The notes under the pieces were generated by a model. The model was not told where the DNA came from. It did no database searches and worked only from the letters and a program-made list of their open reading frames with translations. Shown in pieces: positions 1,652 through 15,954 of a DNA stretch of 15,954 bases. The first letter of the stretch is position 1, and every line of letters starts with the position of its first letter. Location: positions 1-15,954 of the forward strand of contig SKLY01000201.1 in NCBI GenBank assembly GCA_007121335.1, read 5' to 3'. Source of the stretch: Saprospiraceae bacterium. GTDB taxonomy: Bacteria; Bacteroidota; Bacteroidia; Chitinophagales; Saprospiraceae. A program made the translations under genes and the position numbers.

Positions 1652-1834
1652 GGGTGGTAAATTTTTTAATTCCCTACCTGCAAAATTCCAACCACTTGTA
1701 CAAAAGCCACTTAATGCGGCCATTATGTCAGTGTGTTTCGGATTTTTTGTCAGAAATAGACTAAAAAAGACAGGTGCTTTTCCACTGAGGTAGCCGGAAT
1801 AAACTTCAGTCAAAATTGCCAATAGGCTGCAAAT

Positions 1835-3958
1835 TCATATTTCGATTCGCAGGGAAATATCCCAGTTCCTCCCGGCAGCAGTCTGATAATATCGTCCGCC
1901 AAAAGCGTTGAGGTCATTCCCCAGGCTGTAAATTGTATCAAATACATTGTCCAGTCCTGCTGAAAGAAAAATTTTATCTGCAAAACCCGTCTGGAATCCA
2001 TAGTTAAACCTCAGACTAAATACGTTCCAGGAGGATTGGAATTCAGTATTTTCATCCGTCAGCGGCAAACGGTCTGAATAGCGGTGTTGAAGATAAAGAC
2101 TCCCTGAACCAAAGAAACCAACTTTGAGCTCATTAAAGGCGGAGTGAGGAGCGACACCGGTTAGGTAATTGCCACTTAAATCAAATGGTCCAAAAATCTG
2201 ATCTCTGAAGTAGAAGAAATGTCCGGTATAAGTGTGCTTAAGTTGAATGTCAGAGAGAAAACGATTGTCGGAAGTTCGGAGCAATGGGTAGTTCAGTGAA
2301 AATTCCACGCCGAACTGATTCGTTCCACCGGAATTTCGGAACAGTACCACTCCGTCTTCATTGGTAAAGGTAGAAATAGACTCTGACAAGCGGTAGTAGA
2401 AGGTCGAAAGGTCCCAATGAACTCCCCTTTGTGGCATTATTCCCCGGTAACCCAATTCGAAATTCAATCCCCGTTCCGCTTCCAAATCTTCATTTAAACT
2501 GCCCTCGTTGGTGCGAAATTCGTCCAATGTAGGTGGCGAAAATCCCGCACTAACTGATGCAAACATAGATGATGTCTCATTGAATTTGTAAGAGGCAGCA
2601 ATCCGCGGCACCCATTCAGCTTGAAAATTTCTGGAAACTGCAAAGGGCGTTCCGGTTAGATTATCCACATTGCGGTCCACTTTGTAACCCACTGTATTTC
2701 GACTCAAACCCAGGGTCAACAACCAGTCACTACTCAATTCAGCCTCTGCCTGGGTGAAGAAAAAATAATTCCTGGTCCTGATGTCGTCGGCAAACCGCAT
2801 GGTGTCGCGGACGCCTTCTTTATTGCCAAAATTCCTGGCCGAAACCCTTCCCTGTTGAAATTCAGCACCCAGGACCAACCTCAACGGCAGACCGGCCAGG
2901 ACAGCATCTTTCCTAAAAACAGTGCGACCTCCGTAATCAGTACCCAAATCTTTTTTGTAATCGAGGATAAAGGGGTGGTCAAAATCCGTATTGGAGAGGA
3001 AAACAGAGCTGGAATTGGTAACATTGTTGCCCAAATTGCGCTCTATGGTGAAGCCAGTTAAAAGGGTGCGCTGCCGGATTGAGGAGTTTTGCTCTATACT
3101 GCCGGGACGAGACTGATACGGATCCTCTTTGAACTGCCCTAGAGTCAAACCACCGGGGATTTGATAAAAAAGGTCGGAATACAGAACATGAAAGCCCACC
3201 GGTTGATCGGCTGTGGGAAACCATCTGCCCGAAAAATTAAATACGGTGCGCTCCGTGCGGCTGTGTTCGCGGTGTCCATCGGATCGAAAATGATGAAGCC
3301 CCGCCGTGTATTGCATATCATCGGTAGCTCCGGACTTTTTCAAGCCCAGTCGATACATGTCAAATGAACCTGTGGCAGTTTGAGCAGTCAACCGGGACTC
3401 CTCATCTGAAAGGCGATTACTGAATTTTAATACGCCTCCATTTCCGGCACCGTAAATACTTCCAGCCGGCCCCTTCAGAATTTCGATTTGATCGGTTACA
3501 GCCACATCCAGTATATTGAGTGCTGTGGTCCCGTCGGCCAGTGTCAGTGGGAGATCGTTCCAGTAAACCTTAACATTTCGAACACCAAAGGGAGCGCGAA
3601 GAGAACTACCCCTCACCGACACCCTGTAGCTCGAAGGTGCACGTTGTTCAAGTCGCACCCCCGGCCTGGAATTGATGGCTTCATTCAAGCTCCTGCTTCC
3701 AAACGCCTCAAAATCTGCCGGACCCAACCGCTCTATCCCAGCAGCTTGTTGCAACAGCGGCCGATCACTCTCAAAGGCCCTTATCTCCACTTCGGGTAAA
3801 TATTCTCCACTTATTGGTTGTATGGTATCTTTAGCAGTTGTTGATGCATTTAAAAGGGAAGATGCATGAACGATATGATTAAAAGAAAACAGCAGAAAAA
3901 AAACCGGCAAAACCAACCTGGCTTTACTGATGAAGATGCATTGTAGTCCTTTTCTCAT
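1835..3958 (-). CDS. TonB-dependent outer-membrane receptor of about 700 aa (small-substrate class, not SusC-like), with plug and barrel.
   Basis: A 707-aa ORF with an N-terminal signal peptide (MRKGLQCIFISKARLVLPVFFLLFSFNHIVHA). It has a TonB-box-like LPEVEIRA, plug-domain motifs (RVSVRGSS..., NVKVYWNDLPL, IEILKGPAGSIYG) and a long beta-barrel rich in aromatic/Gly alternations. Confidence 0.88.
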   Translation of the reverse strand: MRKGLQCIFISKARLVLPVFFLLFSFNHIVHASSLLNASTTAKDTIQPISGEYLPEVEIRAFESDRPLLQQAAGIERLGPADFEAFGSRSLNEAINSRPGVRLEQRAPSSYRVSVRGSSLRAPFGVRNVKVYWNDLPLTLADGTTALNILDVAVTDQIEILKGPAGSIYGAGNGGVLKFSNRLSDEESRLTAQTATGSFDMYRLGLKKSGATDDMQYTAGLHHFRSDGHREHSRTERTVFNFSGRWFPTADQPVGFHVLYSDLFYQIPGGLTLGQFKEDPYQSRPGSIEQNSSIRQRTLLTGFTIERNLGNNVTNSSSVFLSNTDFDHPFILDYKKDLGTDYGGRTVFRKDAVLAGLPLRLVLGAEFQQGRVSARNFGNKEGVRDTMRFADDIRTRNYFFFTQAEAELSSDWLLTLGLSRNTVGYKVDRNVDNLTGTPFAVSRNFQAEWVPRIAASYKFNETSSMFASVSAGFSPPTLDEFRTNEGSLNEDLEAERGLNFELGYRGIMPQRGVHWDLSTFYYRLSESISTFTNEDGVVLFRNSGGTNQFGVEFSLNYPLLRTSDNRFLSDIQLKHTYTGHFFYFRDQIFGPFDLSGNYLTGVAPHSAFNELKVGFFGSGSLYLQHRYSDRLPLTDENTEFQSSWNVFSLRFNYGFQTGFADKIFLSAGLDNVFDTIYSLGNDLNAFGGRYYQTAAGRNWDISLRIEI

Positions 3959-4232
3959 GGTTCGAAGTAATTTTTTCAGTCGTAAACTGATAGCATAATG
4001 CCAGAAGCTGGAAAGGGTTTAGCAGTCAGCTATTGAAAAAATCAAATAGGCATGAGGCTTTCTGTACACTGAGTCGGGGAGACCGGATTTAAACCATCGG
4101 CCTTTGTGTCCCGAACGCAGCAGACTCACCGTAATGATCTACAGCGCGATATGCTTTTGGCAATCAAGTACAAGGTCTGAGAAGGCGAAGGAAATTAGCA
4201 GTTTTTTCGCTTGAAAGGCCAACGAAACTAAT

Positions 4233-5315
4233 CTACATTCTGTAAACCAGGGCATTGATATTCATTCCGGCACCCACGGAAGCAAGTACGACAATTTGGC
4301 CTTCCTCCAACTGGTGATTCTCAAGTTCGCCTCGCAGTATGAGATCCAGGAGGGTTGGTATTGTAGCAACCGAGGAATTTCCGAGCCAGGAGATGGTCAT
4401 TGGCATAATGTGGTCCGGGACATTTTTTTCACCGTACAGTTTATAGAGCCTTTTGAGGATGGCCTCATCCATTTTGCCGTTGGCCTGATGAATCAACAGT
4501 TTGGATACATCCCCAATTGGAATTTCGCATTTGTCAAGACAGTCTTTAATGGCCTGCGGTACATAAGTCAGGGCGTACTGGTACAATTTCCGACCGTTCA
4601 TTTTCAGGTAAATATTGCCCTCGTTGAGACCATTGGGGTGATAGGAGGCACCCATGTGCAGCATTTGTGAGTACTGATGGGCATCGGACCGTGCCGAGTG
4701 CCCGAGAATCCCTTTGGGTTCTGTACTGATTTCTCCCTGGAGGACCACGGCTCCCGCTCCATCGGAGTAAATCATGCTATCGCGGTCGTGCGGATCAGAA
4801 ACCCTTGACAAAACTTCGGCACCTATTACCAGTACTTTATTAAAGTCACCCGAGCGAATCAGGTAATCTGCCTGAACCACTGCCTGAAGCCACCCCGGAC
4901 ATCCAAATGCAATGTCGTAGCAAACACTTCCCGGGTTTTCAATACCAAGTCTGCTCTTTACACGAGATGCCAAACTGGGAACAAAATCCGAGCGATTACT
5001 GCCCTTTTTTACATCTCCAAAATTGTGTGCGAAGATAATGTGATCCAATTCCTCGCCCGAAATACCTGCCGATTCAATAGCGCGTTTTGCGGCTTCAAAG
5101 CCGAGATCGCTGGTCACCATTTCGTCCCCGGCATACCGCCGCTCATCGATGGTGGTGATTTGCTGAAATTTTTCTACAATCTCACTGTTCGTCTTGTCGT
5201 ATTTGCCACCGCTTTCATCCAAAAACTCCCTGTTCAGAAACTCTTCATTCTTCACCACTATATGCGGGACAAAACTCCCGGTTCCAATAATTCTGCTGTA
5301 GGTTCTCTTACTCAT
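4233..5315 (-). CDS. Beta-ketoacyl-ACP synthase III family protein (long FabH-like KAS III of 360 aa).
   Basis: The N-terminus is SRIIGTGSFVP. The active-site Cys lies in AFGCPGWLQA, His in LIHQANGKM and Asn in WLGNSSVATIP, giving a Cys-His-Asn triad of the KAS III/thiolase fold. Start is ATG at 5313-5315. Confidence 0.85.
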   Translation of the reverse strand: MSKRTYSRIIGTGSFVPHIVVKNEEFLNREFLDESGGKYDKTNSEIVEKFQQITTIDERRYAGDEMVTSDLGFEAAKRAIESAGISGEELDHIIFAHNFGDVKKGSNRSDFVPSLASRVKSRLGIENPGSVCYDIAFGCPGWLQAVVQADYLIRSGDFNKVLVIGAEVLSRVSDPHDRDSMIYSDGAGAVVLQGEISTEPKGILGHSARSDAHQYSQMLHMGASYHPNGLNEGNIYLKMNGRKLYQYALTYVPQAIKDCLDKCEIPIGDVSKLLIHQANGKMDEAILKRLYKLYGEKNVPDHIMPMTISWLGNSSVATIPTLLDLILRGELENHQLEEGQIVVLASVGAGMNINALVYRM

Positions 5316-5547
5316 CTGTACAATTTATAATGATCATCTGCATTCTTTTTGATTCCCGGCACAAAGAACGCCACTCCCTTAGATAACATTACATTCACTT
5401 GAATTGATCCTAAACAATTAACATCATACACACACATTAATTCAAATAAACCAACCAATTCGCGGACAAAAGGATCACATTCCCCTTAGAGCACAGGCTA
5501 AGTTATAAAAATTGCCACATAGTGTTACCGTTTTTTTGTACCATTAT

Positions 5548-5555
5548 TATCTTTG
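5548..5555 (+). promoter_or_regulatory. Candidate Bacteroidetes sigma-A -7 element (TAnnTTTG) for the downstream lipoprotein gene.
   Basis: tatctttg matches TAnnTTTG exactly. It lies 22 nt upstream of ATG 5577, with a T-rich/TTG region about 20 nt further upstream (5527-5538). Confidence 0.4.
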
Positions 5556-5576
5556 TAGGAAAGATAAAAGGTATTC

Positions 5577-6020
5577 ATGAAGCTTTGGTTATTAATTCTT
5601 GCTGTTGGTGCTTTCACTATTCTCCTTTCATGTGTGGCAGAAAAGCCGGAAGAAAGTCCCAAAATAACCACCACTGTTCAAAGTCCCAACGAGGATTCAG
5701 AACTAGCTTTACTGATGCGTTTTATGTACGATGATATGTACCGCGTCAAATCCGAGCTGGAAGCGGGTAAAAGAGCCAGTCTCGAGCACGACCCAAAGGA
5801 AATGTTTACAGCGGAACCAACAGATTCAGCCCAGGTTTCAACCGAGTCTTACAAAGCTTTCGGTCAGGCCTACATAGCAGCTTACAATACTTTCCACCAG
5901 GCAGAGCAAGCCAATTTAAAAGAGCACTTTGAAGTATTAGTGCATAGCTGCATGACCTGCCACCAAACAACTTGCCCCGGGCCCATGAGAAGAATTCAAA
6001 ATCTCTATTTTGATAATTAG
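5577..6020 (+). CDS. Small lipoprotein with a single C-terminal CXXCH haem-c motif, a putative class II c-type cytochrome of the cytochrome c'/c556 type.
   Basis: There is a signal peptide plus lipobox (LAVGAFTILLSC). The predicted mature part is about 125 aa and helical-looking, with the only Cys pair in CMTCH near the C-terminus (HSCMTCHQTTCPG). A C-terminal CXXCH in a ~125-aa protein is the class II cytochrome c arrangement. Confidence 0.6.
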   Translation: MKLWLLILAVGAFTILLSCVAEKPEESPKITTTVQSPNEDSELALLMRFMYDDMYRVKSELEAGKRASLEHDPKEMFTAEPTDSAQVSTESYKAFGQAYIAAYNTFHQAEQANLKEHFEVLVHSCMTCHQTTCPGPMRRIQNLYFDN

Positions 6021-6034
6021 TTCTAATCTCCTAC

Positions 6035-6056
6035 CCTGGAGTCAGGTTTTCCCTTT
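6035..6056 (+). terminator. Possible compact terminator hairpin (cctg-gagt-cagg) followed by a T-rich tract in the 21-bp convergent gap between the lipoprotein gene and pcm.
   Basis: A 4-bp stem (cctg/cagg) with loop gagt is followed by ttttccctttc. It overlaps the pcm stop codon. The stem is weak. Confidence 0.2.
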
Positions 6057-6701
6057 CAGCATGGGGACGAATCGGAAAAGTCCGTGAGAAGTTCGGGAAA
6101 AACTGCCATCTTCATTTCTCCTGTACCTGTACATTTTCTGAGTGCTTTTTGCCTTGCCGAGAGGGATAACAGCCAGACCACCAATCTTCAATTGACGGAG
6201 TAAATTCACAGGAGTTTCGTGGGCTGCGGCCGTAACCAATATTCTATCGAATGGTCCGTGATCGGGAAGTCCCTCCCATCCGTCCCCGTAGAAAACCTGA
6301 ACCTGGGGGTATCCGGCCCTTTCCAAATTAGCAATTGCAGTGTCTCTCAGTTTAGAAAACCTTTCAATGGAGTAAACTTCGGCCCCAAGTTCTGCGAGAA
6401 TGGCCGATTGGTAGCCACTGCCGGTTCCGATTTCCAGTACTCTGTGACCCGGTTCAAGTTCCAACAAGTCGGTTTGAATAGCAACAGTATAAGGCTGAGA
6501 GATAGTTTGGTCACAATCGATTTGAAAGGCCTGATCCCTATATGCCCACTCTTCAAAGCCTTTAGAGATGAAGAGATGGCGAGGCACTTTTCCAAAAGCT
6601 TCGAGAATACGCGGATCTTTGATTCCCTTGTTTTTGAGGTCTTCCACCATTCTCCGGCGCTGGCCCCTCATGAGGTAATTGTCCCCTTTCATTTGGTCCA
6701 T
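6042..6701 (-). CDS. pcm: Protein-L-isoaspartate O-methyltransferase.
   Basis: It carries RMVEDLKNKGIKDPRILEAF, the SAM-binding LEIGTGSGYQSAILAEL and a C-terminal VIPLG motif. The true start may be an internal Met (MRGQRRRM...) rather than the first ATG. Confidence 0.9.
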   Translation of the reverse strand: MDQMKGDNYLMRGQRRRMVEDLKNKGIKDPRILEAFGKVPRHLFISKGFEEWAYRDQAFQIDCDQTISQPYTVAIQTDLLELEPGHRVLEIGTGSGYQSAILAELGAEVYSIERFSKLRDTAIANLERAGYPQVQVFYGDGWEGLPDHGPFDRILVTAAAHETPVNLLRQLKIGGLAVIPLGKAKSTQKMYRYRRNEDGSFSRTSHGLFRFVPMLKGKT

Positions 6702-6755
6702 TCAGTAAGAATTTAAAGGTCGAATATACGAAAAAAGGGATGAAACAGGGCAGTA

Positions 6756-6794
6756 TCAAAAGGAAAAAGGCATGAATTTTTGACGATCCATGCC
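6756..6794 (-). terminator. Rho-independent terminator candidate downstream of rplY.
   Basis: On the minus strand the sequence reads ggcatgga-tcgtcaaaaat-tcatgcc, a 6-8 bp stem, followed by tttttcctttt. It lies 37 nt after the rplY stop. Confidence 0.5.
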
Positions 6795-6830
6795 CCTTGT
6801 GCCTGTTGATTAATTTCAGATAGGTAATTT

Positions 6831-7478
6831 TTATTCCTCAGCTGTCTCCTCAGTTGCAGCCTCTTCTCCTTCAGCAGCCGCCTCTTCTTTACCTTCTCCC
6901 TCTCTGGCCTCTTTGGATGCTGCGGACTTGAGTGCTCTTGGCACTTCAACTGAAACAATGGGAATTCCCGTTGCATTCATGATTTCCACACCCTCGGGCA
7001 CATCAATGTCCCTGACACGAAGTGCAGATCCCAATTTCAATCCGGAAACATCCACAAATACTTCATCCACGAGGAATTCGGGATTGGTTTTGATCTTAAC
7101 CTTACGCAACAATTGCTGCAATTTACCACCTTCCTTCACACCCGGAGAAACTCCTTTGATTCTGAGGGGTATTTGCACCTTAATGTTGACACCGTCCACC
7201 ATTTTGAGGAAGTCTGCGTGCATAATTTGTTCCGTTACAGGGTGGAACTGTATATCCTTAAGTATGCACTTGTGGGTTTTTCCATCTATATTGAGCTCAG
7301 CAAGTTTGAATGCGGGATTGTAAACAAGGTCTTTGAAATCCTTTTCCCTGCAAACTACCGAGAGAGTTTGATCACCTCCGTATATCACGCAGGGAACCAA
7401 CTTCTCTTTTCTGAGTCTTCTGGCTGCACTTTTTCCAGTGTTTTCTCGCTTTTTGGCCTCTATGGCTACCGTTTCCAT
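6831..7478 (-). CDS. rplY: 50S ribosomal protein L25 / general stress protein Ctc, with an acidic Ala/Glu-rich C-terminal tail.
   Basis: The N-terminus ...AKKRENTGKSAARRLRKEKLVPCVIYGG... is the L25/Ctc signature. The EAAAEGEEAATEETAEE tail is typical of long Ctc-type L25 proteins. Confidence 0.92.
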   Translation of the reverse strand: METVAIEAKKRENTGKSAARRLRKEKLVPCVIYGGDQTLSVVCREKDFKDLVYNPAFKLAELNIDGKTHKCILKDIQFHPVTEQIMHADFLKMVDGVNIKVQIPLRIKGVSPGVKEGGKLQQLLRKVKIKTNPEFLVDEVFVDVSGLKLGSALRVRDIDVPEGVEIMNATGIPIVSVEVPRALKSAASKEAREGEGKEEAAAEGEEAATEETAEE

Positions 7479-7511
7479 GCCTTTAAAATTTAGCTGTTTT
7501 CAAAAGGACTG

Positions 7512-7519
7512 CAAAGATA
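7512..7519 (-). promoter_or_regulatory. Candidate -7 element (TATCTTTG on the minus strand) for rplY.
   Basis: Plus-strand caaagata is TATCTTTG on the minus strand, an exact match to TAnnTTTG. It lies 34-41 nt upstream of the rplY ATG (7478). Confidence 0.35.
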
Positions 7520-7608
7520 GGCAAAATCCCTGATTAATAGCCAAGTATTTGATTGAAATATTTTTTGACTCAGGCGATTAAGCCAACCAGCCGTACATCT
7601 GAAATAAT

Positions 7609-8535
7609 CTACTCTATAAACAATGCTGATATAGAGCGGTGTTCGTGGGTATTTCTAATGGCTTTTGAAAACAGCTTTGCCACGCTGAGAACCGATATTT
7701 TGTCCAGTTTCTTTTTCAGCGGTATAGTATCTGTCACAATGAGTTCGTCTATATCAGATTGCTCGATGTTTTCATAGGCATTTCCGGAAAGGACCGGATG
7801 GGTGCAGATGGCTTTTACAGAGGCAGCACCTTTGTCCATCAGTGCTTTGGCAGCTTTGCAAAGTGTTCCCGCAGTATCGACAATGTCGTCCACCATGATG
7901 ACCTCAGCGTCTTTTACATCTCCAATCACAATGATCTCAGCCACCTCATTGGCCCTTTCTCTCCGCTTGTCACAAATCACCAGGTCGCAGCCGAAATACT
8001 TGGCAAATTGTCGGGCTCTTTTTACTCCGCCGACATCCGGAGAAGCGAATTTCACCCTTGACAAATCCCGCTTGCTGAGGTAGGGCACGAATATGGCATT
8101 GCTCTTCAAGTGGTCAACAGGTATGTCAAAAAATCCCTGTATTTGGTCTGCATGAAAATCAAGTGTCATCACTCTGTCCGCTCCGGCAGCCTGCAAAAGA
8201 TTGGCGATGAGTTTGGCCGATATCGGCACCCTGGCTTTGTCCTTCCTATCCTGTCGCGCATAACCAAAATAAGGCATCACAGCTGTAATGTAGCTGGCAG
8301 AGGCCCGTTTTGCGGTATCGATCATCAAAAGCAACTCCATCAGATTGTCCGTGGGAGAAAAAGTACTCTGAATGAGAAAGGTGTAAGCCCCCCTGACGGA
8401 CTCTCTTATTTCTGTCTGCATTTCACCATCGCTGAACCTGTGGAGTTTGATATCTCCGGGAGCACCTCCGTAGTGGTGAATTATCTTATCTGCGAGGTAT
8501 TGAGAACCGGAGCCGGAGAAGAGCTTAATTTCCAT
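7609..8535 (-). CDS. prs: Ribose-phosphate pyrophosphokinase (PRPP synthetase).
   Basis: MEIKLFSGSGSQYLADKI... is the classic Prs N-terminus. DFHADQIQGFFDIPVDHL and the PRPP-binding loop VIMVDDIVDTAGT are present. The ORF track begins at a TTG (8544), but the ATG at 8533-8535 gives the canonical Prs N-terminus. Confidence 0.94.
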   Translation of the reverse strand: MEIKLFSGSGSQYLADKIIHHYGGAPGDIKLHRFSDGEMQTEIRESVRGAYTFLIQSTFSPTDNLMELLLMIDTAKRASASYITAVMPYFGYARQDRKDKARVPISAKLIANLLQAAGADRVMTLDFHADQIQGFFDIPVDHLKSNAIFVPYLSKRDLSRVKFASPDVGGVKRARQFAKYFGCDLVICDKRRERANEVAEIIVIGDVKDAEVIMVDDIVDTAGTLCKAAKALMDKGAASVKAICTHPVLSGNAYENIEQSDIDELIVTDTIPLKKKLDKISVLSVAKLFSKAIRNTHEHRSISALFIE

Positions 8536-8573
8536 AAGGACCAATGCAATTTCAACATATTAAAAGATGGCAA

Positions 8574-8581
8574 CAAAAGTA
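8574..8581 (-). promoter_or_regulatory. Candidate -7 element (TACTTTTG on the minus strand) for prs.
   Basis: Plus-strand caaaagta is TACTTTTG on the minus strand, an exact match to TAnnTTTG. It lies 39-46 nt upstream of the prs ATG. Confidence 0.35.
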
Positions 8582-8775
8582 ATCAAAAAGTAACACTCCA
8601 CCGGAAAAAGCCAATATTTTCACCCGATAAAATGCCGTTGGTCGGCAAATGTGGTTAGTTTGTAAAAAAGATGGTCTCCTGTAATCAATTAACACCAAAA
8701 GTCCATTATATTTATGCCTTGTGAAAAAAGGTAAGCAGCTTCATCAATTAACCATTACTTGAAAAACGCATACTT

Positions 8776-9375
8776 ATGGGATTTTCGGGACTTGAAGAGT
8801 GGTGGCTGGCACTGGAAACAGAGCCCAGAATATTCTTTATCATAGCTGCTGTAGCCTCCGTGTTTTTCATTCTGCTTTTTATCGTTAGCCTGTTAGGTCT
8901 GGATGCGGATACGGATATAGATGGTGACATGGATACTGACCTGGGAGAAGTGGGGGATTTCTCCGTGTTATCTGTCCGTGGTGTGGTGGCCTTTTTCACT
9001 TTTTTCGGATGGGGAGGTTTTCTAATCTTAAATTCAGGTGGCAGCTTGCTACTCGCATTGGGATTTTCACTCTTTGCCGGACTGGCAGCCCTCTATATAG
9101 TAGGATACTTGCTCTACGTATTTAACAATTTGACCGAAACCGGCAATTGGGATATCCGCAATGCACTCTACCAGGAGGGAGAAGTTTATTTGCCCATTGG
9201 CGGTGATAAAGAGCCCGGGCGGGTGAATGTAATAGTAGGCGGAGTGCTGCGCGAATTGGAAGCTGTTTCTGTTGATTCAGAACCCATCAATACAGGCTCT
9301 CTGGTCTCTATAGTAGGGATTAGAGACGACGGCACATTGGTAGTCGAAGTCATTGAACAAATAGAAGAACCTTAA
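8776..9375 (+). CDS. NfeD-like membrane protein (YuaF/YqiJ type): three TM helices, an Asp-rich periplasmic loop and a C-terminal OB-fold beta-barrel.
   Basis: Hydrophobic segments are IFFIIAAVASVFFILLFIVSLLGL, VVAFFTFFGWGGFLIL and LLLALGFSLFAGLAALYIVGYLLYVF. The loop DADTDIDGDMDTD lies between TM1 and TM2. The C-terminal GEVYLPIGGDKEPGRVNVIVGGVLRELEAVSVDSEPINTGSLVSIVGIRDDGTLVVEV is typical of the NfeD beta-barrel domain. The gene ends 15 bp before the flotillin gene. Confidence 0.8.
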   Translation: MGFSGLEEWWLALETEPRIFFIIAAVASVFFILLFIVSLLGLDADTDIDGDMDTDLGEVGDFSVLSVRGVVAFFTFFGWGGFLILNSGGSLLLALGFSLFAGLAALYIVGYLLYVFNNLTETGNWDIRNALYQEGEVYLPIGGDKEPGRVNVIVGGVLRELEAVSVDSEPINTGSLVSIVGIRDDGTLVVEVIEQIEEP

Positions 9376-9390
9376 TAAAAAAATTTAGCC

Positions 9391-10920
9391 ATGGTACAAT
9401 CATCTTTAATTATTATTGCAGGTCTCGTTTTTCTGGTACTGCTCATGCTGCTTTATGCCGTCACACGCTACAAGCGGTGTCCGAGTGATAAAATCCTGGT
9501 TATATACGGAAGAACAGGGGCGGGCTCGGCCAAGTGTTTGGCCGGTGGTGCAGCCTTTGTCTGGCCGGTTATTCAGGACTATCAATTTCTCGACCTGACT
9601 CCCATTTCCATTGATGTCAATCTGCGGGGTGCACTGAGTAAACAAAACATACGGGTGAATGTCCCCTCCCGGTTCACTGTGGCCGTTTCCAACGATGCAA
9701 GTATTATGACCAATGCGGCTGAACGCTTGTTGGGAAAATCTAGAACAGAAATTGCCGACTTGTCAAAGGACATCATTTTTGGACAATTGAGGCTGGTGGT
9801 TGCGACCATGGATATCGAGGAGATAAACAGCGACCGCGATAAGTTTCTCTCCAATGTGACCAGTAATGTAGGATCGGAACTGAAAAAAATCGGACTTGCC
9901 CTCATCAACGTGAATGTCACCGACATCGAAGATGAGTCCAAATACATCGAGGCGCTCGGTAAAGAGGCCGCCGCTCACGCTATCAACGAGGCACGAGTAC
10001 GCGTGGCAGAAAGAGAAAGAGAGGGTTCCATCGGTGAGGCAGAAGCCAAAAGGGACCAGCGGGTCAAAGTGGCCAATGCAGAAGCAGACGCGGTATCGGG
10101 TGAGGCGGAAGCCAAAAAAGAGGAACGAGTGCGGGTAGCAGAGGCAAACGCAAGGTCTATCGAAGGCGAAAACCGCTCTCAGGTAAGTATTGCAAAATCT
10201 GACTCTGAGAGACGTAAAAAGGAAGCAGAAGCCAACAACCAGGCACTTGCCTCCGAAAAAGTAGAAGAGGCCAGGGCACTCGAAATTGCCTACCAGGCAG
10301 AGCAAAAAGCCGAAAAATCCAGGGCCGACAGAGAACGAGCAAGTCTGGCAGCAGACACCATCGTCAAGGCTGAAATCGCCAAGCGAAAAGCGGAAATTGA
10401 CGCCGAAGCCATGGCAGAAACCATCCGCAGAAAAGCTAAGGGTGAAGCTGATGCCATCTACATGAAAAAAGAAGCCGAAGCAAGGGGAATGTATGAATTG
10501 CTAACCAAGCAGGCCGATGGATTTGAAAAAATTGTCAAAGCCTCAGGTGGCGGACCACGCGATGCGGTATTAATGATGATTGCAGATAAACTCGAGGACC
10601 TCGTCAAAACCCAGGTGGACGCCATCAAAAACATCAAGATCGACAAGGTCACTGTCTGGGAAGGAGGCAACCAAAACGATGGTGAAGCCAACTCCACCAG
10701 CAAGTTCATCAGCGGCCTTTACAAATCGGTTCCTCCAATGAGTGACCTTTTCAATATGGCTGGAATGGACCTTCCCGGCTACCTTGGCAAAGCCAATAAG
10801 GGGGATGAGGATATCATCCGCGAACTGCCCGTCAAGGCAAAAAAGGAAGATGAAAGTCGTGATGCGAAAGAAGATGATAAGAGTAAAAAGGACGACAGTA
10901 ATTCAGGCAAAAAAGAGTGA
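9391..10920 (+). CDS. Flotillin-family protein (SPFH/band-7 domain plus EA-repeat coiled coil; FloT/YuaG/YqiK-like, 509 aa).
   Basis: An N-terminal TM anchor is followed by an SPFH domain (KRCPSDKILVIYGRTGAG...FVWPVIQDYQFLDLTPISIDV...). A long Ala/Glu-rich flotillin region has repeated EAEAK units, and the tail is Lys/Asp/Glu-rich. The length equals that of B. subtilis FloT. The gene forms an operon with the NfeD-like gene. Confidence 0.9.
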   Translation: MVQSSLIIIAGLVFLVLLMLLYAVTRYKRCPSDKILVIYGRTGAGSAKCLAGGAAFVWPVIQDYQFLDLTPISIDVNLRGALSKQNIRVNVPSRFTVAVSNDASIMTNAAERLLGKSRTEIADLSKDIIFGQLRLVVATMDIEEINSDRDKFLSNVTSNVGSELKKIGLALINVNVTDIEDESKYIEALGKEAAAHAINEARVRVAEREREGSIGEAEAKRDQRVKVANAEADAVSGEAEAKKEERVRVAEANARSIEGENRSQVSIAKSDSERRKKEAEANNQALASEKVEEARALEIAYQAEQKAEKSRADRERASLAADTIVKAEIAKRKAEIDAEAMAETIRRKAKGEADAIYMKKEAEARGMYELLTKQADGFEKIVKASGGGPRDAVLMMIADKLEDLVKTQVDAIKNIKIDKVTVWEGGNQNDGEANSTSKFISGLYKSVPPMSDLFNMAGMDLPGYLGKANKGDEDIIRELPVKAKKEDESRDAKEDDKSKKDDSNSGKKE

Positions 10921-11002
10921 TGCAGCCCGGTGATTAATTGCGCAGATTGAAACAGTCTGCAGTGGGGATTGTTAGAGACCAATCACCTGTTAATTATTTG
11001 GA

Positions 11003-11905
11003 TTGGGCCAAAGAGAAAATATACTGGGTTTTGCACTGCTGTTCATCCTTGGACTGACCTGGGGGTCATCTTATATCCTCATAAAAAAAGGCCTGATAGC
11101 TTTTTCTCCTCTGCAAGTGGCCATGTTGAGGTTTGGCCTTTCAGGTCTGGCATTTGCGCCACTTGCATTCAGGTATTTTTTCAAGCTATCGGCCACCGAA
11201 ATTTGGCGACTGGTTTTTGTCGGTCTGTTGGGGAGTGGACTGCCGGCAATTCTTTTTGCTTTGGCCCAAACCCGCATAAGCAGTTCGGCTGCCGGCATCC
11301 TCAGTTCTTTTACCCCATTGGCTACCTATTTTTTCGGACTGCTATTTTTCGGATTGGTTTTTTACCGCCGTAAATTCACAGGGGTGATAATCGGGCTGGC
11401 AGGGGCTATACTACTTATAGTCCAAAGCAACAACGGGGAACAAAGTGGCGATGTCTGGTACGGGGCACTTGTGCTGCTGGCCACCATTTGCTACGCTCTC
11501 AACGGAAACCTGATCAAGCACTATTTCCAAAATCACTCCCCTTTTCTAATTGCCACCATGAGTTTTTCACTAACGGGCTTTCCGGTCTTTGTGCTGCTCT
11601 TTGCCACCGATTTTACGGAAGTGCTGGCAACCCATCCACAGGGCTGGTCCTCGCTGGGCTACCTGGCCATCCTGGCTTTCGTAGGAACAGTGGCAGCATC
11701 GATTGTATTTTTCAAACTCGTACAGATAACCGATGCACTTTTTGCCTCCTCAGTCAGTTATTTGGTACCGCTTTTCGCCGTATTCTGGGGTGTGGTTGAC
11801 GGGGAAAACATTCACCTTTTTGACCTGGTTGGCATGCTGCTGATACTCGCCGGGATTTACTTTTCAAGAAGTCAAAAACCAACAGTTGAAACAGTACCCA
11901 AATAG
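11003..11905 (+). CDS. EamA-family (DMT superfamily) transporter with ten predicted TM helices in two EamA repeats.
   Basis: The 300-aa polytopic protein has an N-terminal LTWGSSYILIKKG and a second-half repeat, both EamA-like. The first in-frame start after the upstream stop is TTG at 11003. The next ATG would delete TM1. Confidence 0.82.
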   Translation: MGQRENILGFALLFILGLTWGSSYILIKKGLIAFSPLQVAMLRFGLSGLAFAPLAFRYFFKLSATEIWRLVFVGLLGSGLPAILFALAQTRISSSAAGILSSFTPLATYFFGLLFFGLVFYRRKFTGVIIGLAGAILLIVQSNNGEQSGDVWYGALVLLATICYALNGNLIKHYFQNHSPFLIATMSFSLTGFPVFVLLFATDFTEVLATHPQGWSSLGYLAILAFVGTVAASIVFFKLVQITDALFASSVSYLVPLFAVFWGVVDGENIHLFDLVGMLLILAGIYFSRSQKPTVETVPK

Positions 11906-12080
11906 TATTTCAAAATCCCATTTTCACTCTTTCACCAAAAAAATATCAATCCACAATTCTTCTCACTCCGGGACGAGGATATTATTTCATCCAAAATCAG
12001 CTAAGCAGGCCGATTTCAATCCCCTGTAATTGAACAATCATCCTGTTCCGGTTTTGTATTCTCAAGTAAAATGCCGCGAA

Positions 12081-12674
12081 ATGGACCGAATAAAAAAATG
12101 GTTTGGAGCCGGGGAAAAGAAGTCGGAAGAAGCCGGACAAGCCTATAAAAGTGAGCTGGAAGACGACATCGTCAATCGCGATGATTTCCTCAAATGGTCA
12201 GATAAAAAAGGTATCCTGGCTGACTTCCTTAAGGACCTGAGGACTGAATACGGCAAATATCTGACAGAGTCTGAGGAGCACGAAGAGTGGGTGGATTTTC
12301 TCAGAAGTCAGGGAGCAGATGGGTTCATGGTTCATACGCAAAAATACCCCGGAACCCTGTCCAAATGGATATATTTGGCAGAATACCTCAAAGACCAGAC
12401 GATGAGCTGGGGCTATAAACTATACTCCTCCGAAGAAGGCTCTGATGGCGGCGATGCCCCGGTCACTTATTTGAGATACTACTTTAAACCACCGATTAAA
12501 AACAAGCTTTCCAAACCCATTGACCAAATTTTTGGCAACATCACCATCGAGCTGAAAATGAGTGACGGCAATTCCGAATCACTGAAATACCAGGCACTCC
12601 ACTACAGCGACCGAAACTATCAGCCACCGAGAAATATCGGCCTTTTGTATGAGAGTATTTTTGAGCAGGAGTGA
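12081..12674 (+). CDS. Hypothetical cytoplasmic acidic protein of about 197 aa, with no recognisable domain.
   Basis: The ORF has host-like GC of about 50% and begins MDRIKKWFGAGEKK... It has no signal peptide and is rich in E/D/K/Y/W. The track's TTG start at 12030 is possible, but ATG 12081 is preferred. Confidence 0.6.
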   Translation: MDRIKKWFGAGEKKSEEAGQAYKSELEDDIVNRDDFLKWSDKKGILADFLKDLRTEYGKYLTESEEHEEWVDFLRSQGADGFMVHTQKYPGTLSKWIYLAEYLKDQTMSWGYKLYSSEEGSDGGDAPVTYLRYYFKPPIKNKLSKPIDQIFGNITIELKMSDGNSESLKYQALHYSDRNYQPPRNIGLLYESIFEQE

Positions 12675-12688
12675 GGTACAGTTAATTG

Positions 12689-12708
12689 ATGAGTCCACTC
12701 CAAAAACC
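12689..12708 (+). repeat. Left terminal inverted repeat (20 bp) atgagtccactccaaaaacc.
   Basis: It is the reverse complement, at 19/20 positions, of 12977-12996 (ggttttcggagtggactcat). The core atgagtccactcc is a 13/13 match. Confidence 0.9.
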
Positions 12709-12976
12709 TCTTTTTATTACAAATGGCTGCAAAGGCCAATTTCTTCGCCCCCTCCCCAAAGCATAGCCTGCCCCCCCAAAGCATTGGGGGGGCGGGAGGA
12801 CAAGAAAGCTATGGGGGTCTTTCCTCAACGTAGCTAAGGCTACGACTGAGGGCTACCCACCCGCTTCGCGGTTCAATCGCTTGAATGTCCCCCGGACGTT
12901 CACTCCCTAAACGGGGGATCGGTCTTTCACCTTCTTCCTCGATCTTGAATTTTTCGCTCATTTTCATGCACAAATT

Positions 12977-12996
12977 GGTTTTCGGAGTGGACTCAT
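12977..12996 (+). repeat. Right terminal inverted repeat (20 bp).
   Basis: ggttttcggagtggactcat is the reverse complement of the left IR at 19/20 positions. Confidence 0.9.
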
Positions 12997-13025
12997 TTAT
13001 TTGTGTTAACGTAATGTTAAATTTT

Positions 13026-13033
13026 TGGGGGGG
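13026..13033 (+). repeat. G8 homopolymer tract about 60 nt upstream of the Cys-rich ORF start.
   Basis: tttttgggggggg is read directly from the sequence. It is the longest G/C run in the window and sits in an otherwise AT-rich intergenic region. Confidence 0.9.
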
Positions 13034-13093
13034 GAATTTTTCTTGTAAACCTTCCGTTGCACACATGAAACTTTACAAAAACATAAAATTTGA

Positions 13094-13492
13094 GTGGTGA
13101 AATTAACAACCTTATTTACGTCAATTTACTTCTTAGTAGTTATTTCGTTAGGATTTCTTTATCATCCTAATAATTTTGAATCAAATACAATTACTTCATA
13201 TATTTCTTCAGCAGAAGGTTCAATTGAATCCAACAAAGAGGCACATTATTTTTTACCGCGATTTACGTTGGTTCAATATAATTGTACGGCAAGTGTATTT
13301 GCCTATTGTTGTTGCCATTGTGTTGGAGACGCACCCTGCTCAATGACATGTTATGAAGCACCAGGGAATTTTTTTGCGTGCCATTTTGGTGGAGGATTTG
13401 AATGCTCACCCTCTAGCTTAGGATTATGTGTAGTAAACCCTGGTCAGGAATGTATGGGGGAAAGTTGTTGCAGGCCGTGTTGGGGACCTTAA
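13094..13492 (+). CDS. Small signal-anchored cysteine-rich protein of 132 aa, with 14 Cys in the last 69 residues and a CCCHC motif. It could be a secreted Cys-rich peptide, toxin or RiPP-like precursor.
   Basis: A 399-nt ORF in roughly 30% GC DNA is unlikely by chance. It starts at GTG (13094 or 13097) with no ATG available. The N-terminal hydrophobic segment is LFTSIYFLVVISLGFLYHP. The C-terminus is YCCCHCVGDAPCSMTCYEAPGNFFACHFGGGFECSPSSLGLCVVNPGQECMGESCCRPCWGP. Confidence 0.5.
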   Translation: MVKLTTLFTSIYFLVVISLGFLYHPNNFESNTITSYISSAEGSIESNKEAHYFLPRFTLVQYNCTASVFAYCCCHCVGDAPCSMTCYEAPGNFFACHFGGGFECSPSSLGLCVVNPGQECMGESCCRPCWGP

Positions 13493-13544
13493 ACTTACTT
13501 AAACTGTCTGATAATTATTTTTATACTTTTTCAAATCATTAATT

Positions 13545-15134
13545 ATGAACTTGTTGTACAATACTTCTGGTTTGCTTAGGCAAAAATCACTTTACATAAT
13601 TGGTTTGATTGGTTTTGGTGGTTTATTATTCTACACCATTCCCTCGTATTATTATTCACAATTTGGAGAATCTCAATCCCCGGTAGAATTGGATGAACGC
13701 AATTTATCCGAAATTTGGGACTTTAGCATTGAAACCGATGGTGTGAATTTATTTTATGACACCCTTTTATTAACACCACTTCAACCAAATCCCTATTCTA
13801 ATCTTAATCGGGTCTTTAAACAAGAAGTGATTAATGAAAATCTCTATATGATGACCGAAGAAATGCCCGGGCAGGTTTTTAAGTATGGAACAGATGGAAC
13901 TTTCAAAGGGGTGATTGGAAGTACTAATTCTCAAGGTATGTCACGTAACTTTACATTCGACATATGCCCTGAAAGCGGGAATATAATTATTGCAAATACC
14001 TTAGATTCGACCATCAAAATTTATTCTCCTAAAGGGGAATTGCTCCGGAAAAAAGAGCCTGATTTCTTCTTCATAGACTTCAAATACTTTAGCAGCACAT
14101 CTAATTTCCTATTCCTTATCATTCAACCTGATCCCGGTTTTTCAATAAGCCAGCACCATAAACTCTACCTGGCAGATAGCAATATTACTATAATTGATAG
14201 TTTGTTTCCGTTTACTCCAAATCAATTGCATAAAGAACTCGGAGTATCCAGATCACTTAAGCAAAACCCAAATAAAGCCAATAAAGTATTTTTTGCAGAC
14301 ATGCTTCTGGGTGAAATTTATGAGATAGATGACAACGGCAATAAAACCTTAGCTTATAAAGTGGAGGATGGTATTGAAAACAGGGCAGATTCTTTAAGTG
14401 CCTTAAACCCCAATAACCTTAATAATCAAGATGTTAATAATAATCTTAAGTTCTATTCCATATTCGATTATCACCCTGGAAGTAATTTATTAGCGGTAGC
14501 TAAAACTAGCCTTGAGGGTCCCCGAAAAAACCTGATTTTTTCAAAGGATCACGGTACCGGATTAAAATTTGCCAGAGGAATTCGTTCGACGGGACCCTTT
14601 TTGGAAGGCCATCCCTTTATGTTTCACTTTGGTATTATTGACTTTATGAAAGACGATACGATAGGAACTATTATATCACCTGATTTGTGGAGTTTTATGA
14701 AGCCAACACTAACAGATCCTTCGATTGTTTTGGATCATACGATCCATTTGCCAGATTCTATTGAATATCCAATCCTGAAAATGGCAGTTTTAAAGGAAAG
14801 TTTCTTCGATGAAGAAGCATTGTCCTATTCCCGTTTAATTGATAAAAGTGAGTCAAGTAATAATGATTCGGGACAGAAATCCGATTACTTTTTGTATCCT
14901 AATCCAACAACAGGATTTGTACAAGTAGGAACCCATTCTTCCCAGAACAAGGAGGATTTAAGAAATATGACAGTAAAAATCTTTAATATTAATGGAGAGT
15001 TACTTGGAGAGTTTCCAGCAGAGAGCAAAATTGATTTAAGACAATTGGCAATTAGGACCGGAACCTATTTATTCTCTTTAGAAAATGAACTGGGTGAGCA
15101 AATTACTTCCAGGCCATTTTTATATCACTATTGA
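13545..15134 (+). CDS. T9SS-secreted cargo protein of 529 aa: N-terminal hydrophobic signal/anchor, central beta-propeller-like domain of unknown function and C-terminal Por-secretion-system sorting domain (type A CTD).
   Basis: The C-terminal ~80 aa read ...DYFLYPNPTTGFVQVG...MTVKIFNINGELLGEFPA...LRQLAIRTGTYLFSLENELGEQITSRPF... They carry the YPNPttG, IfninGelv and GtYlfsl hallmarks of the T9SS CTD. The middle region has Gly/Thr/Asp-rich strands (KYGTDGTFKGVIGST..., IIIANTLDSTIKIYSPKGELL) suggesting a beta-propeller or NHL-like fold. Confidence 0.8.
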   Translation: MNLLYNTSGLLRQKSLYIIGLIGFGGLLFYTIPSYYYSQFGESQSPVELDERNLSEIWDFSIETDGVNLFYDTLLLTPLQPNPYSNLNRVFKQEVINENLYMMTEEMPGQVFKYGTDGTFKGVIGSTNSQGMSRNFTFDICPESGNIIIANTLDSTIKIYSPKGELLRKKEPDFFFIDFKYFSSTSNFLFLIIQPDPGFSISQHHKLYLADSNITIIDSLFPFTPNQLHKELGVSRSLKQNPNKANKVFFADMLLGEIYEIDDNGNKTLAYKVEDGIENRADSLSALNPNNLNNQDVNNNLKFYSIFDYHPGSNLLAVAKTSLEGPRKNLIFSKDHGTGLKFARGIRSTGPFLEGHPFMFHFGIIDFMKDDTIGTIISPDLWSFMKPTLTDPSIVLDHTIHLPDSIEYPILKMAVLKESFFDEEALSYSRLIDKSESSNNDSGQKSDYFLYPNPTTGFVQVGTHSSQNKEDLRNMTVKIFNINGELLGEFPAESKIDLRQLAIRTGTYLFSLENELGEQITSRPFLYHY

Positions 15135-15249
15135 GTCAACCTTTCATTATTAATGAAAAAACGCTCGATGTGACATATTAATCATGGCTACTGGTACTTT
15201 AAATTTTTCCGTCCTTAATATATACAACCAAAAAACAATTCCCGGGCCA

Positions 15250-15954
15250 TTAAGGCAAGAAAGCCACAACACGAAGCGGCGCACCACTGCCGCCCCTGAT
15301 TGTCCTAGGTAAAGCCATAATCCAGAATCCCTCTGGCGGGAGTTCGTCCAGGTAGGCGAGGTTTTCATAGGCTGTCACGCCCTGGGCAAACAAAATGCGA
15401 TGGGTCATAAAGCCTTTCGATTTCCCGTAATCGATGCCTGAGGTGTCGAGACCAACGGCTTTTATATCTCTGTTTTCAACCAACCAGGTGGCTGCATGGG
15501 GGTGTATGCCCGGAAAGGATAGATTGTCAACACCTTCCTGTCTGCTGAGGTCGGTTCCGGTATACGCCAATTTGTCGGGATAAAACTTCCAAAATCTAGT
15601 GTTGAAAAGTACGATGGCACCATGTGGTATGCGTCCGTGTTCCTCCTCCCATGCCTGCAAATCACCGACCGTTATTTGATAATCTCGATCACTGGCCGCC
15701 TGGGATTTTACATCCACTAAAATTCCCGGCCCGTTTAGTTGGTCTATTCCGATTTGATCTACCGTTTTGCCATTTTCTGCAAAATGAATGGGCGCATCAA
15801 AATGGGTTTCTCCGTGCTCTTCGGCTGCAAAGTGAAAGGAAGAATAGTAATAACCCCCTTCGGTAATTCCGTCAAAAACAGTGTCGTGAGAAAAGGGAAT
15901 ATTGGTAGGCCAATAGATCGACTCCTCGTCAAAAGCCCAGGTCAGATCAATCCA
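15250..15954 (-). CDS. Cyclase-family / kynurenine formamidase-like metal hydrolase (PF04199-type). The C-terminus is present; the N-terminus lies beyond the window.
   Basis: The reverse-complement translation runs into the window edge as WIDLTWAFDEESIYWPTNIPF...HFAAEEHGETHFDAPIHFAENGKTVDQIGIDQLNGPGILVDVKS... It contains the HxGTHxDAPxH cyclase-family metal-binding motif. The track's 155-aa ORF is only the part after an internal Met. Confidence 0.82.
   Translation of the reverse strand, partial: WIDLTWAFDEESIYWPTNIPFSHDTVFDGITEGGYYYSSFHFAAEEHGETHFDAPIHFAENGKTVDQIGIDQLNGPGILVDVKSQAASDRDYQITVGDLQAWEEEHGRIPHGAIVLFNTRFWKFYPDKLAYTGTDLSRQEGVDNLSFPGIHPHAATWLVENRDIKAVGLDTSGIDYGKSKGFMTHRILFAQGVTAYENLAYLDELPPEGFWIMALPRTIRGGSGAPLRVVAFLP

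Follow-up and report, generated by a model that had tools for sequence, protein, structure and literature searches.

An AT-rich islet in a Saprospiraceae genome carries a conserved gene pair for a cysteine-rich protein and a predicted type IX-secreted, propeller-like protein

The AT-rich islet and the proteins it encodes

We analyzed a stretch of 15,954 nucleotides from a Saprospiraceae bacterium (assembly GCA_007121335.1, contig SKLY01000201.1, positions 1 to 15,954 of the forward strand; this whole stretch is called the window in the following). A preliminary description, made from the letters of the window, had pointed to an AT-rich islet at positions 13034-15249 that carries a small cysteine-rich protein and a cargo protein of the type IX secretion system (T9SS), and had read it as a horizontally acquired secreted-effector cassette. 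The islet contains two long open reading frames (ORFs), both on the plus strand. The upstream gene (13094..13492, with a GTG start) encodes a 132-aa protein with exactly 14 cysteines, and the downstream gene (13545..15134) encodes a 529-aa protein whose C-terminal sorting domain (CTD) scores above the cut-offs for T9SS cargo; in both respects the gene content is as first described. An intergenic spacer of 52 nt (13493..13544, plus strand) without a terminator-like hairpin lies between the two genes, which would be expected to form an operon. Judged by sequence comparison, the two genes are a conserved pair, because the sole homolog of the larger protein has a homolog of the cysteine-rich protein encoded directly upstream of it.

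The break in composition is sharp and falls at the two edges named in the preliminary description. Sliding GC computations gave a G+C (GC) content of 35.3% for the islet, compared to 46.2% for the left flank (1-12683) and 48.7% for the right flank (15250-15954). The fall in GC begins immediately 3' of a 318-bp element bounded by inverted repeats (IRs; 12684-13001), and the right edge of the islet is set by a convergent gene of the cyclase family (Pfam Cyclase, 7.6e-38), whose stop is at 15250. Across the left flank, every window of 2216 bp has a GC content between 43.9 and 49.4% (mean 46.2, standard deviation (sd) 1.4). The islet lies about 8 sd under these values, so the uniform profile that had been named as evidence against the first interpretation was not found. 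The tetranucleotide check gave the same picture, with the correlation to the usage in the remaining window dropping from about 0.8 to about 0.5 across the islet. The GC content at third codon positions (GC3) is 25.6% in the cysteine-rich gene and 32.8% in the larger gene, versus 44-54% in 11 flanking genes. While the contrast is real, the values first given for it were exaggerated. The inside of the islet, put at 27-33%, ranges from 32 to 42% in 300-bp windows; for the flanks, put at 45-58%, we obtained 49.2% for the flotillin gene (not 58%), 48.0% for FabH, and 45.6% for the gene at 12081-12674 (not 52%).

The 132-aa protein begins with a hydrophobic segment (aa 1-23), presumably a signal or anchor; an acidic linker of low conservation (aa 24-55) leads from there to a C-terminal cysteine-rich domain of about 77 residues. 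All 14 cysteines lie within residues 64-129, that is, within the 69 residues of aa 64-132 (13283..13489, plus strand). The domain is net acidic and rich in glycine, proline, and aromatic residues. AlphaFold2 (AF2) predicted a helix at aa 2-22 with a predicted local distance difference test (pLDDT) score of 73-78; the model as a whole, for which little alignment depth was available, has a mean pLDDT of 49 and is too poor for use. The protein had no match in Pfam, NCBIfam, or PDB, and a word-indexed search of a collection of 5.8 billion protein clusters returned only the protein itself. An exhaustive phmmer search with aa 44-132 against 1.84 billion representatives recovered the protein and two other hits. 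The one of these two that was inspected (P0004) is the translation of a tandem repeat whose score is due to repetition, and it was rejected as a relative of the domain. This domain, which we refer to as Cys14, is undescribed.

The 529-aa protein has a putative N-terminal signal (aa ~10-32), in which a hydrophobic segment (aa ~15-32) is preceded by Arg and Lys and is helical in the AF2 model. Its last 80 residues (aa 450-529; 14892..15131, plus strand) form a T9SS type-A CTD with a YPNPTTG motif. This region matched Por_Secre_tail (PF18962) at 4.2e-9 with 37.0 bits against a cut-off of 27 (aa 450-519), and TIGR04183 at 1.5e-7 with 31.3 bits against a cut-off of 23 (aa 450-522). The identification as T9SS cargo was therefore upheld, as was the presence of predicted export signals on both products, given their hydrophobic N-termini and the CTD of the larger one. 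T9SS machinery (PorK/L/M/N, SprA, PorU/V) is expected in Saprospiraceae; none of its components is encoded in the 16-kb window.

What the preliminary description had missed is the affiliation of the region between the N-terminal segment and the CTD (aa ~85-445) with NHL/DUF5128-like beta-propellers, which becomes visible through a homolog, P0003. This protein (498 aa, from a Saprospirales metagenome-assembled genome (MAG), annotated by NCBI as "6-bladed beta-propeller") is 32% identical to the window protein over 471 aa (E 1e-59) and is its only relative beyond its own population in the 5.8-billion-cluster collection; searching with a profile of the two sequences added nothing beyond the window population and P0003. 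P0003 matched PF17170 (DUF5128) at 1.6e-9 with 37.8 bits against a cut-off of 22.9, over model positions 13-216 of 321, and it also carries a T9SS CTD above the curated cut-off. Against PDB, the two-protein profile matched the NHL domains of TRIM2, TRIM3, and TRIM71 with values from 6e-6 to 0.4; those for TRIM3 and TRIM2 range from 6e-6 to 3e-4. Since P0003 is above the DUF5128 threshold and the window protein below it, the latter is classified by transitivity only, as a probable divergent NHL/DUF5128-like propeller with a T9SS tag.

Three motifs are invariant between the two propellers: K-x-EDGIENR-x-DSL (aa 272-284), GH-x-F-x-FHF (aa 355-362), and HLPDSI (aa 401-406). All three fall outside the part matched by DUF5128, in the C-terminal half that is specific to the pair. 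They are rich in His, Asp, Glu, and Arg, and might constitute a metal, active, or partner-binding site. The AF2 model of the propeller is unreliable (mean pLDDT 42); its strands suggest four-stranded blades from aa ~90 to ~333, with room for about six up to aa ~445.

The gene pair in a second genome and in its own population

The MAG contig that encodes P0003 (L001) contains a 123-aa ORF (9603-9974) directly upstream of the P0003 gene, on the same strand and with a spacer of 26 nt. The encoded protein is 41% identical to the cysteine-rich protein of the window over 79 aa (E 7e-12). It likewise has a hydrophobic N-terminus, so that all four proteins from the two genomes carry such a segment, followed by an acidic linker of low conservation and a cysteine domain that is acidic as well; the net charges of the two mature domains are -3 and -7. 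Exactly 14 cysteines are found in its C-terminal 77 residues, and all are positionally equivalent to those of the window protein, so that the count is even in both. The common framework is C-x7-CCC-x-C-x4/5-C-x3/6-C-x8/9-C-x7-C-x5/7-C-x7/8-C-x2/4-CC-x2/3-C. The preliminary description had proposed to look for homologs of the two proteins together in other genomes; they are adjacent in this one, and in the databases searched the L001 proteins are the only relative that either protein has outside its own population.

The L001 homolog also bears on the possibility that the cysteine-rich ORF arose by chance in AT-rich DNA, and that the only gene of the islet is the one for the T9SS cargo, preceded by a long 5' region. 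This possibility could draw on the GTG start and on the public annotations, because one NCBI MAG (L003, 7460-7939) has no call for the gene and JGI (L002, 9550-9802) gives an 84-aa product with coordinates that are not a multiple of three. The DNA of L002 and L003 is, however, identical to that of the window and encodes the intact 132-aa protein, and the ORF is intact in every assembly. The GC content at second codon positions (49%) is far above GC3 (26%), a coding-like pattern. In the region of the cysteine-rich gene the two cassettes share protein homology without DNA similarity, and the L001 protein occupies the equivalent relative position with its 14 cysteines aligned. The conserved homolog thus effectively refutes a chance ORF, to which we assign a negligible probability. 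Because the L001 protein has the same 14-cysteine framework, comparison of the two establishes the small ORF as a genuine gene, and the annotation of deposited MAGs in which it is missing or truncated is corrected accordingly. In L001, too, NCBI calls a shorter product, a 109-aa "hypothetical protein".

The pair is retained at only 32-41% protein identity despite wholly different neighbors. In the window the order is L25-prs-orf199-flotillin-EamA-hyp197, the pair, and cyclase; in L001 it is AhpC, a 452-aa gene, and FTCD, then the pair, followed by a 241-aa gene and a reprolysin gene. The flanking proteins of the two loci have no similarity to each other. The L001 pair is also AT-rich, with 29.6% GC compared to 38.6% in its host (sd 1.8) and GC3 values of 21-26 versus 32-39%.

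A direct duplication of about 250 bp (9232-9478 and 11592-11845, about 88% identity) brackets the L001 pair. In the left duplicate, 77 aa remain from the C-terminus of the product of the 241-aa gene; on the right this gene is intact. This arrangement looks like the scar expected of an integrase-free single-crossover (Campbell-type) integration of a circular DNA that carried a diverged copy of this gene end, although an old local duplication could also have produced it. We consider it the best evidence that the pair moved as a unit.

The two genes could nevertheless be unrelated neighbors, that is, an ordinary T9SS surface or adhesion propeller next to an independent small periplasmic or metal-binding protein, in an islet that is AT-rich through the bias of ORFans. 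Functionally unassigned T9SS cargo proteins are numerous in Bacteroidota of the Saprospiraceae type, further CTD-bearing proteins are found near the L001 pair, and a high AT content is usual for ORFan genes. The deficit in GC scales with host GC, being about -11 points in the window and about -9 in L001. That two hosts differing in GC show so similar a deficit can be explained equally well by incomplete amelioration and by an AT bias inherent to ORFan or mobilome genes. An accidental neighborhood would not be expected to preserve order, strand, and close spacing at 32-41% identity in two unrelated contexts. In addition, there is no other detectable relative that shows either protein alone, and the L001 duplication brackets both genes together. 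We regard unrelated neighbors as unlikely.

Outside the coding regions, the two cassettes cannot be aligned better than shuffled sequences: 157, 383, and 65 of 1000 shuffles reached the observed score for the upstream region (13002..13093 in the window), the spacer, and the tail, respectively. GTTAA repeats were considered as a conserved motif and are not claimed as such, because shuffles reach the alignment scores observed. The tail is an AT-rich stretch of 115 nt (15135..15249) that extends from the propeller stop to the convergent cyclase stop and forms the right end of the islet; it has no significant similarity to the L001 tail and no direct repeat matching the left junction.

Within the species, the arrangement hyp197-IR element-pair-cyclase is identical in at least nine independent conspecific assemblies or MAGs, and no variant without the islet was seen in exact-protein look-ups of the flanking genes. 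The record names alone (SL_1KL_011_SED, SL_9KL_010_SED) suggest an origin from soda-lake sediment; the main text of a soda-lake MAG paper (PMC6146748) does not contain these sample identifiers. Across the conspecific assemblies the cysteine-rich gene has no polymorphic site. The propeller gene has eight synonymous and three non-synonymous sites, for a pN/pS of about 0.10 (binomial P = 3e-4 versus neutrality), and is under purifying selection; several of its synonymous polymorphisms are shared. By these measures both genes look functional.

We scanned GTDB species genomes with the neighboring flotillin and obtained 80 Bacteroidota loci. The nearest are Saprospiraceae MAGs with about 70% flotillin identity, several of which keep L25-prs-orf199-flotillin(-EamA). 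Hyp197, the pair, and the cyclase were not found near flotillin in any of the 80 loci (the pair is absent within 10 kb). The preliminary description had proposed to check whether relatives keep the synteny without the cassette. The pair is present in all of the conspecific assemblies, and none of them offers an empty site. Since synteny already ends at EamA, the 80 loci do not contain a true empty site at this evolutionary distance either. In three Saprospiraceae relatives EamA is directly followed by a conserved gene of about 125 aa with the motif GRGVF...I.E.CPVI (L018 16442-16831, L033 12846-13223, L042 13197-13568). The window lacks this gene after EamA and has hyp197, the IR element, and the cassette there instead; because of this difference, the region to the right of EamA appears to be a variable junction.

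Searches of mobile elements gave no relatives. Using tblastn, none was detected for the islet proteins in plasmids and phages, and scans of JGI metagenome contigs and IMG/VR with both alignments also returned none; the JGI scans are weak negatives, because a known JGI contig was not recovered. PADLOC and PHROGs gave no match, and neither the IMG/VR scans nor the phage records gave a hit. There is no link of the islet to phages, plasmids, or defense systems.

With no more than 32-41% protein identity between its two known copies, the module is old. It is present in all of the at least nine assemblies and its propeller gene is under purifying selection, which argues that it is not a recent or strain-variable acquisition. 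It is an accessory module that is fixed in the species and selectively maintained. Of the horizontal acquisition proposed earlier, what stands is a discrete, foreign-looking unit that occurs in a different context in L001; the notion that it was recent is contradicted by its fixation. More generally, a sharp dip in GC can mark an old, fixed, and selectively maintained cassette rather than a recent acquisition.

A possible extracytoplasmic complex

Very probably, the two genes of the islet make up an accessory operon that is conserved and whose products are exported. We further propose, tentatively and at somewhat less than an even chance for the joint interpretation, that the products of this operon would form an extracytoplasmic complex. 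A physical interaction between the two proteins is, taken by itself, something we place between doubtful and not quite evenly balanced. According to this proposal, a rare ORFan-type accessory cassette of Saprospirales, probably from soda lakes, would have been inserted long ago; it is now fixed in the species. The two genes would be co-transcribed. The product of the first would be exported by Sec, and its 14 cysteines would most simply form seven disulfides in the periplasm. The propeller would cross the inner membrane by Sec, would then be handled by the T9SS via its type-A CTD, and, by analogy with characterized type-A cargo, would be released or covalently attached at the cell surface. The two proteins would bind each other outside the cytoplasm, and the knotted mini-protein would serve the propeller as ligand or small subunit. 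Alternatively, the mini-protein may inhibit or chaperone the propeller in the periplasm, so that the latter stays inert before it is exported, and may then be left behind or carried along.

Several known systems resemble parts of this arrangement. Like other type-A T9SS cargo, the larger protein has about 80 C-terminal residues that score above both model cut-offs, and its N-terminal segment is hydrophobic; it differs in that its passenger domain is uncharacterized and in that it is encoded with a small cysteine-rich partner that lacks a CTD. With the DUF5128/NHL propellers it shares, through P0003 and the match of the pair profile to the TRIM domains, a likely kinship, and also a probable extracytoplasmic location, the occurrence in Bacteroidota, and a function that is unknown. 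The DUF5128 model, however, covers only the N-terminal part of the propeller in P0003 and leaves the window protein below threshold. DUF5128 members of the BF3164 type are lipoproteins, whereas the window protein has a T9SS CTD and no lipobox Cys. Small genes of the NVEALA family often lie upstream of DUF5128 genes in Bacteroides; as no NVEALA motif was found in 1.5 Mb of fetched loci, we do not use this association as evidence. A literature search on the function of DUF5128, BF3164, or NVEALA, and on T9SS together with cysteine-rich and NHL proteins, gave nothing relevant.

In the tryptophan tryptophylquinone (TTQ) and cysteine tryptophylquinone (CTQ) amine dehydrogenases (methylamine dehydrogenase MauA/MauB, aromatic amine dehydrogenase, and the quinohemoprotein amine dehydrogenase QHNDH), a small subunit rich in disulfides or thioethers is tightly bound to a propeller heavy subunit. 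The gene for a small cysteine-rich precursor of about 130 aa adjoins the propeller gene in these systems, and in this respect the islet may be analogous. Membership in this group was tried and failed, because no PDB chain of these enzymes was matched and the conserved pair of cofactor Trp residues is missing: the cysteine domain of the window contains a single Trp, and that of L001 contains none. Accessory genes of the mau or qhp type and a radical-SAM maturase are absent near the pair, and the propellers of the amine dehydrogenases are seven-bladed, periplasmic, and without a T9SS tag. A looser analogy might be drawn to teneurins (cysteine-rich and NHL modules) and the low-density lipoprotein (LDL) receptor (EGF and YWTD modules), which combine a disulfide-rich module with a six-bladed propeller outside the cell. 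Here the two are separate polypeptides, in which no EGF or teneurin domain was detected, so that this remains an analogy only. A bacterial ancestry of teneurins is discussed in PMC3278476.

If the pairing is functional, it would extend the small set of disulfide-rich mini-proteins known from bacteria by a domain with an unrecognized cysteine framework, would provide the first candidate protein partner for the uncharacterized DUF5128/NHL propellers of Bacteroidota, and would raise the question of hetero-complex export by the type IX system. T9SS cargo, DUF5128-like propellers, and AT-rich accessory islets are all known in kind; what is new is the cysteine-rich domain and its pairing. The immediate impact is modest, as this is an ORFan pair seen in two uncultured lineages. 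A bolder version of the proposal would make Cys14 a new family of disulfide-knotted mini-proteins and the obligate partner of a T9SS-exported NHL/DUF5128 propeller. The two would form a binary secreted unit, either by piggy-back export, in which the propeller takes the CTD-less peptide along through the type IX system to the cell surface, or with the mini-protein as dedicated periplasmic inhibitor of a surface enzyme, and would move among alkaliphilic Saprospirales as a 2-kb integrase-free cassette through Campbell-type recombination at short gene-end homologies. We consider this version improbable.

A number of points weigh against a complex encoded by an acquired cassette. The interaction would have to be derived from two instances of the pair, which are too few for covariation analysis or robust co-occurrence statistics. 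The cysteine-rich protein has no CTD. Cleavage of its signal would leave it in the periplasm while the propeller is exported, and hitch-hiking through the T9SS is hypothetical. Its cysteines could bind metal instead of forming disulfides. The window propeller does not match PF17170 even at E <= 10, and the predicted structures, with mean pLDDT values of 42 and 49, are unusable for blade number, active site, or interface. A high AT content is common among accessory and ORFan genes and alone is no proof of horizontal transfer. There is no tRNA gene in the window, no integrase, transposase, or other mobility domain in the ORFs tested, and only chance matches of 7-10 nt as direct repeats at the junctions; the signs of mobility that a horizontally acquired cassette might show are therefore absent here. 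The islet has the sharp compositional edges, the deficit in GC and GC3 of about 10 points or more, the very narrow taxonomic spread, and the different context in a second genome that characterize AT-rich ORFan islets. It differs from them in lacking these mobility features and in being fixed, old, and under purifying selection.

The preliminary description had suggested a toxin- or bacteriocin-like effector, which would make the cysteine-rich protein a toxic peptide with the propeller as its partner or, conversely, the propeller a T9SS effector with a membrane-tethered cysteine-rich immunity protein. A small two-gene accessory cassette in which both products have export signals would suit such a module, and patchy distribution and atypical composition are common for competition loci. 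Disulfide-rich mini-proteins are, moreover, often toxins or enzyme inhibitors. No positive evidence emerged, however: searches of Pfam, NCBIfam, PADLOC, and PHROGs gave no match to a toxin, bacteriocin, leader, C39 peptidase, ABC exporter or other transporter, maturase, or immunity protein. The mature cysteine domains are acidic and not cationic, as their net charges show. Instead of varying between strains, the locus is fixed in the population, with hardly any variation. Because the cysteine-rich protein has a Sec-type N-terminus and no CTD, it is not evident how it would cross the outer membrane. We know of no toxic activity in NHL/DUF5128 propellers. A toxin module is, in our view, quite unlikely.

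The poorly conserved N-terminal region of the small protein, followed by a highly conserved cysteine-rich C-terminus, would also be compatible with the precursor (leader and core) of a system like those for ribosomally synthesized and post-translationally modified peptides (RiPPs), with the propeller as tailoring or processing enzyme. The genes are tightly linked, and the three invariant propeller motifs could form a catalytic or metal site. Neither the two proteins nor their neighbors include a GG-type leader, maturase, protease, ABC exporter, or immunity gene, and in neither genome does the neighborhood encode a radical-SAM enzyme, lanthionine synthetase, cyclodehydratase, protease, or exporter. 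The N-terminus resembles a Sec signal and not a cytoplasmic leader, and a core of 77 residues with 14 cysteines far exceeds the usual RiPP cores. The would-be enzyme bears a cell-surface secretion tag, and no enzyme propeller in PDB (PAL, lactonase) was matched. A RiPP-like system is accordingly given very little credence.

The sequences and genes around the pair

The IR-bounded element on the left of the islet (12684..13001, 318 bp) has imperfect IRs of 30 nt (12684-12713 and 12972-13001) that are 83% complementary. It has a GC content of 50% and is strongly structured, with internal hairpins of G/C tracts (for example, 12767-12796). The predicted RNA fold of 12675-13010 has an energy of -130.1 kcal/mol, compared to -94.3 +/- 4.8 for shuffled sequences (z = -7.5). 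No Rfam family was matched, and a search of the window and of 103 fetched loci gave no further copy. An 85-aa ORF called on the element (12809-13066, minus strand) is seen in this context only and is probably spurious. Because its composition is like that of the host or higher in GC, the element is probably not part of the cassette proper; it marks the left edge of the islet. It could be a remnant similar to a miniature inverted-repeat transposable element (MITE), a structured RNA, or a long leader of the cysteine-rich operon.

Between the IR element and the cysteine-rich gene lies an AT-rich stretch (13002..13093, plus strand) that presumably contains the promoter of the gene. It includes a G8 homopolymer (13027-13034) between T5 and A-T runs (AAATTTTTGGGGGGGGAATTTTT), about 60 nt upstream of the start of the gene. 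Homopolymer tracts of this type can drive phase variation. Three assemblies span the stretch with its G8 tract, and they do not differ there. A scan for sigma-70-type promoters found no excess over shuffled sequences, and the sigma-70 model is uninformative for Bacteroidota.

Two of the genes around the islet contain dense clusters of mostly synonymous single-nucleotide polymorphisms. In the L25 gene (6795-7251) these occur in L002 and L098, and in the cyclase gene (15498-15945) they occur in L094 and in L002, L090, and L098; the neighboring genes are identical. The clusters resemble patches introduced by recombination with a diverged strain. The islet, which lies between the two genes, is kept in all of these assemblies.

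Upstream of the gene for the flotillin-like (Band_7) protein lies a 199-aa ORF that has no Pfam hit; together they occupy 8776-10920 of the window. The two genes are conserved as a pair in nearly all of the 80 fetched flotillin loci (L007-L086). A few of the loci that carry them are labelled Clostridia, Clostridium, or Deltaproteobacteria, at about 60% identity, which may reflect mis-binning or transfer.

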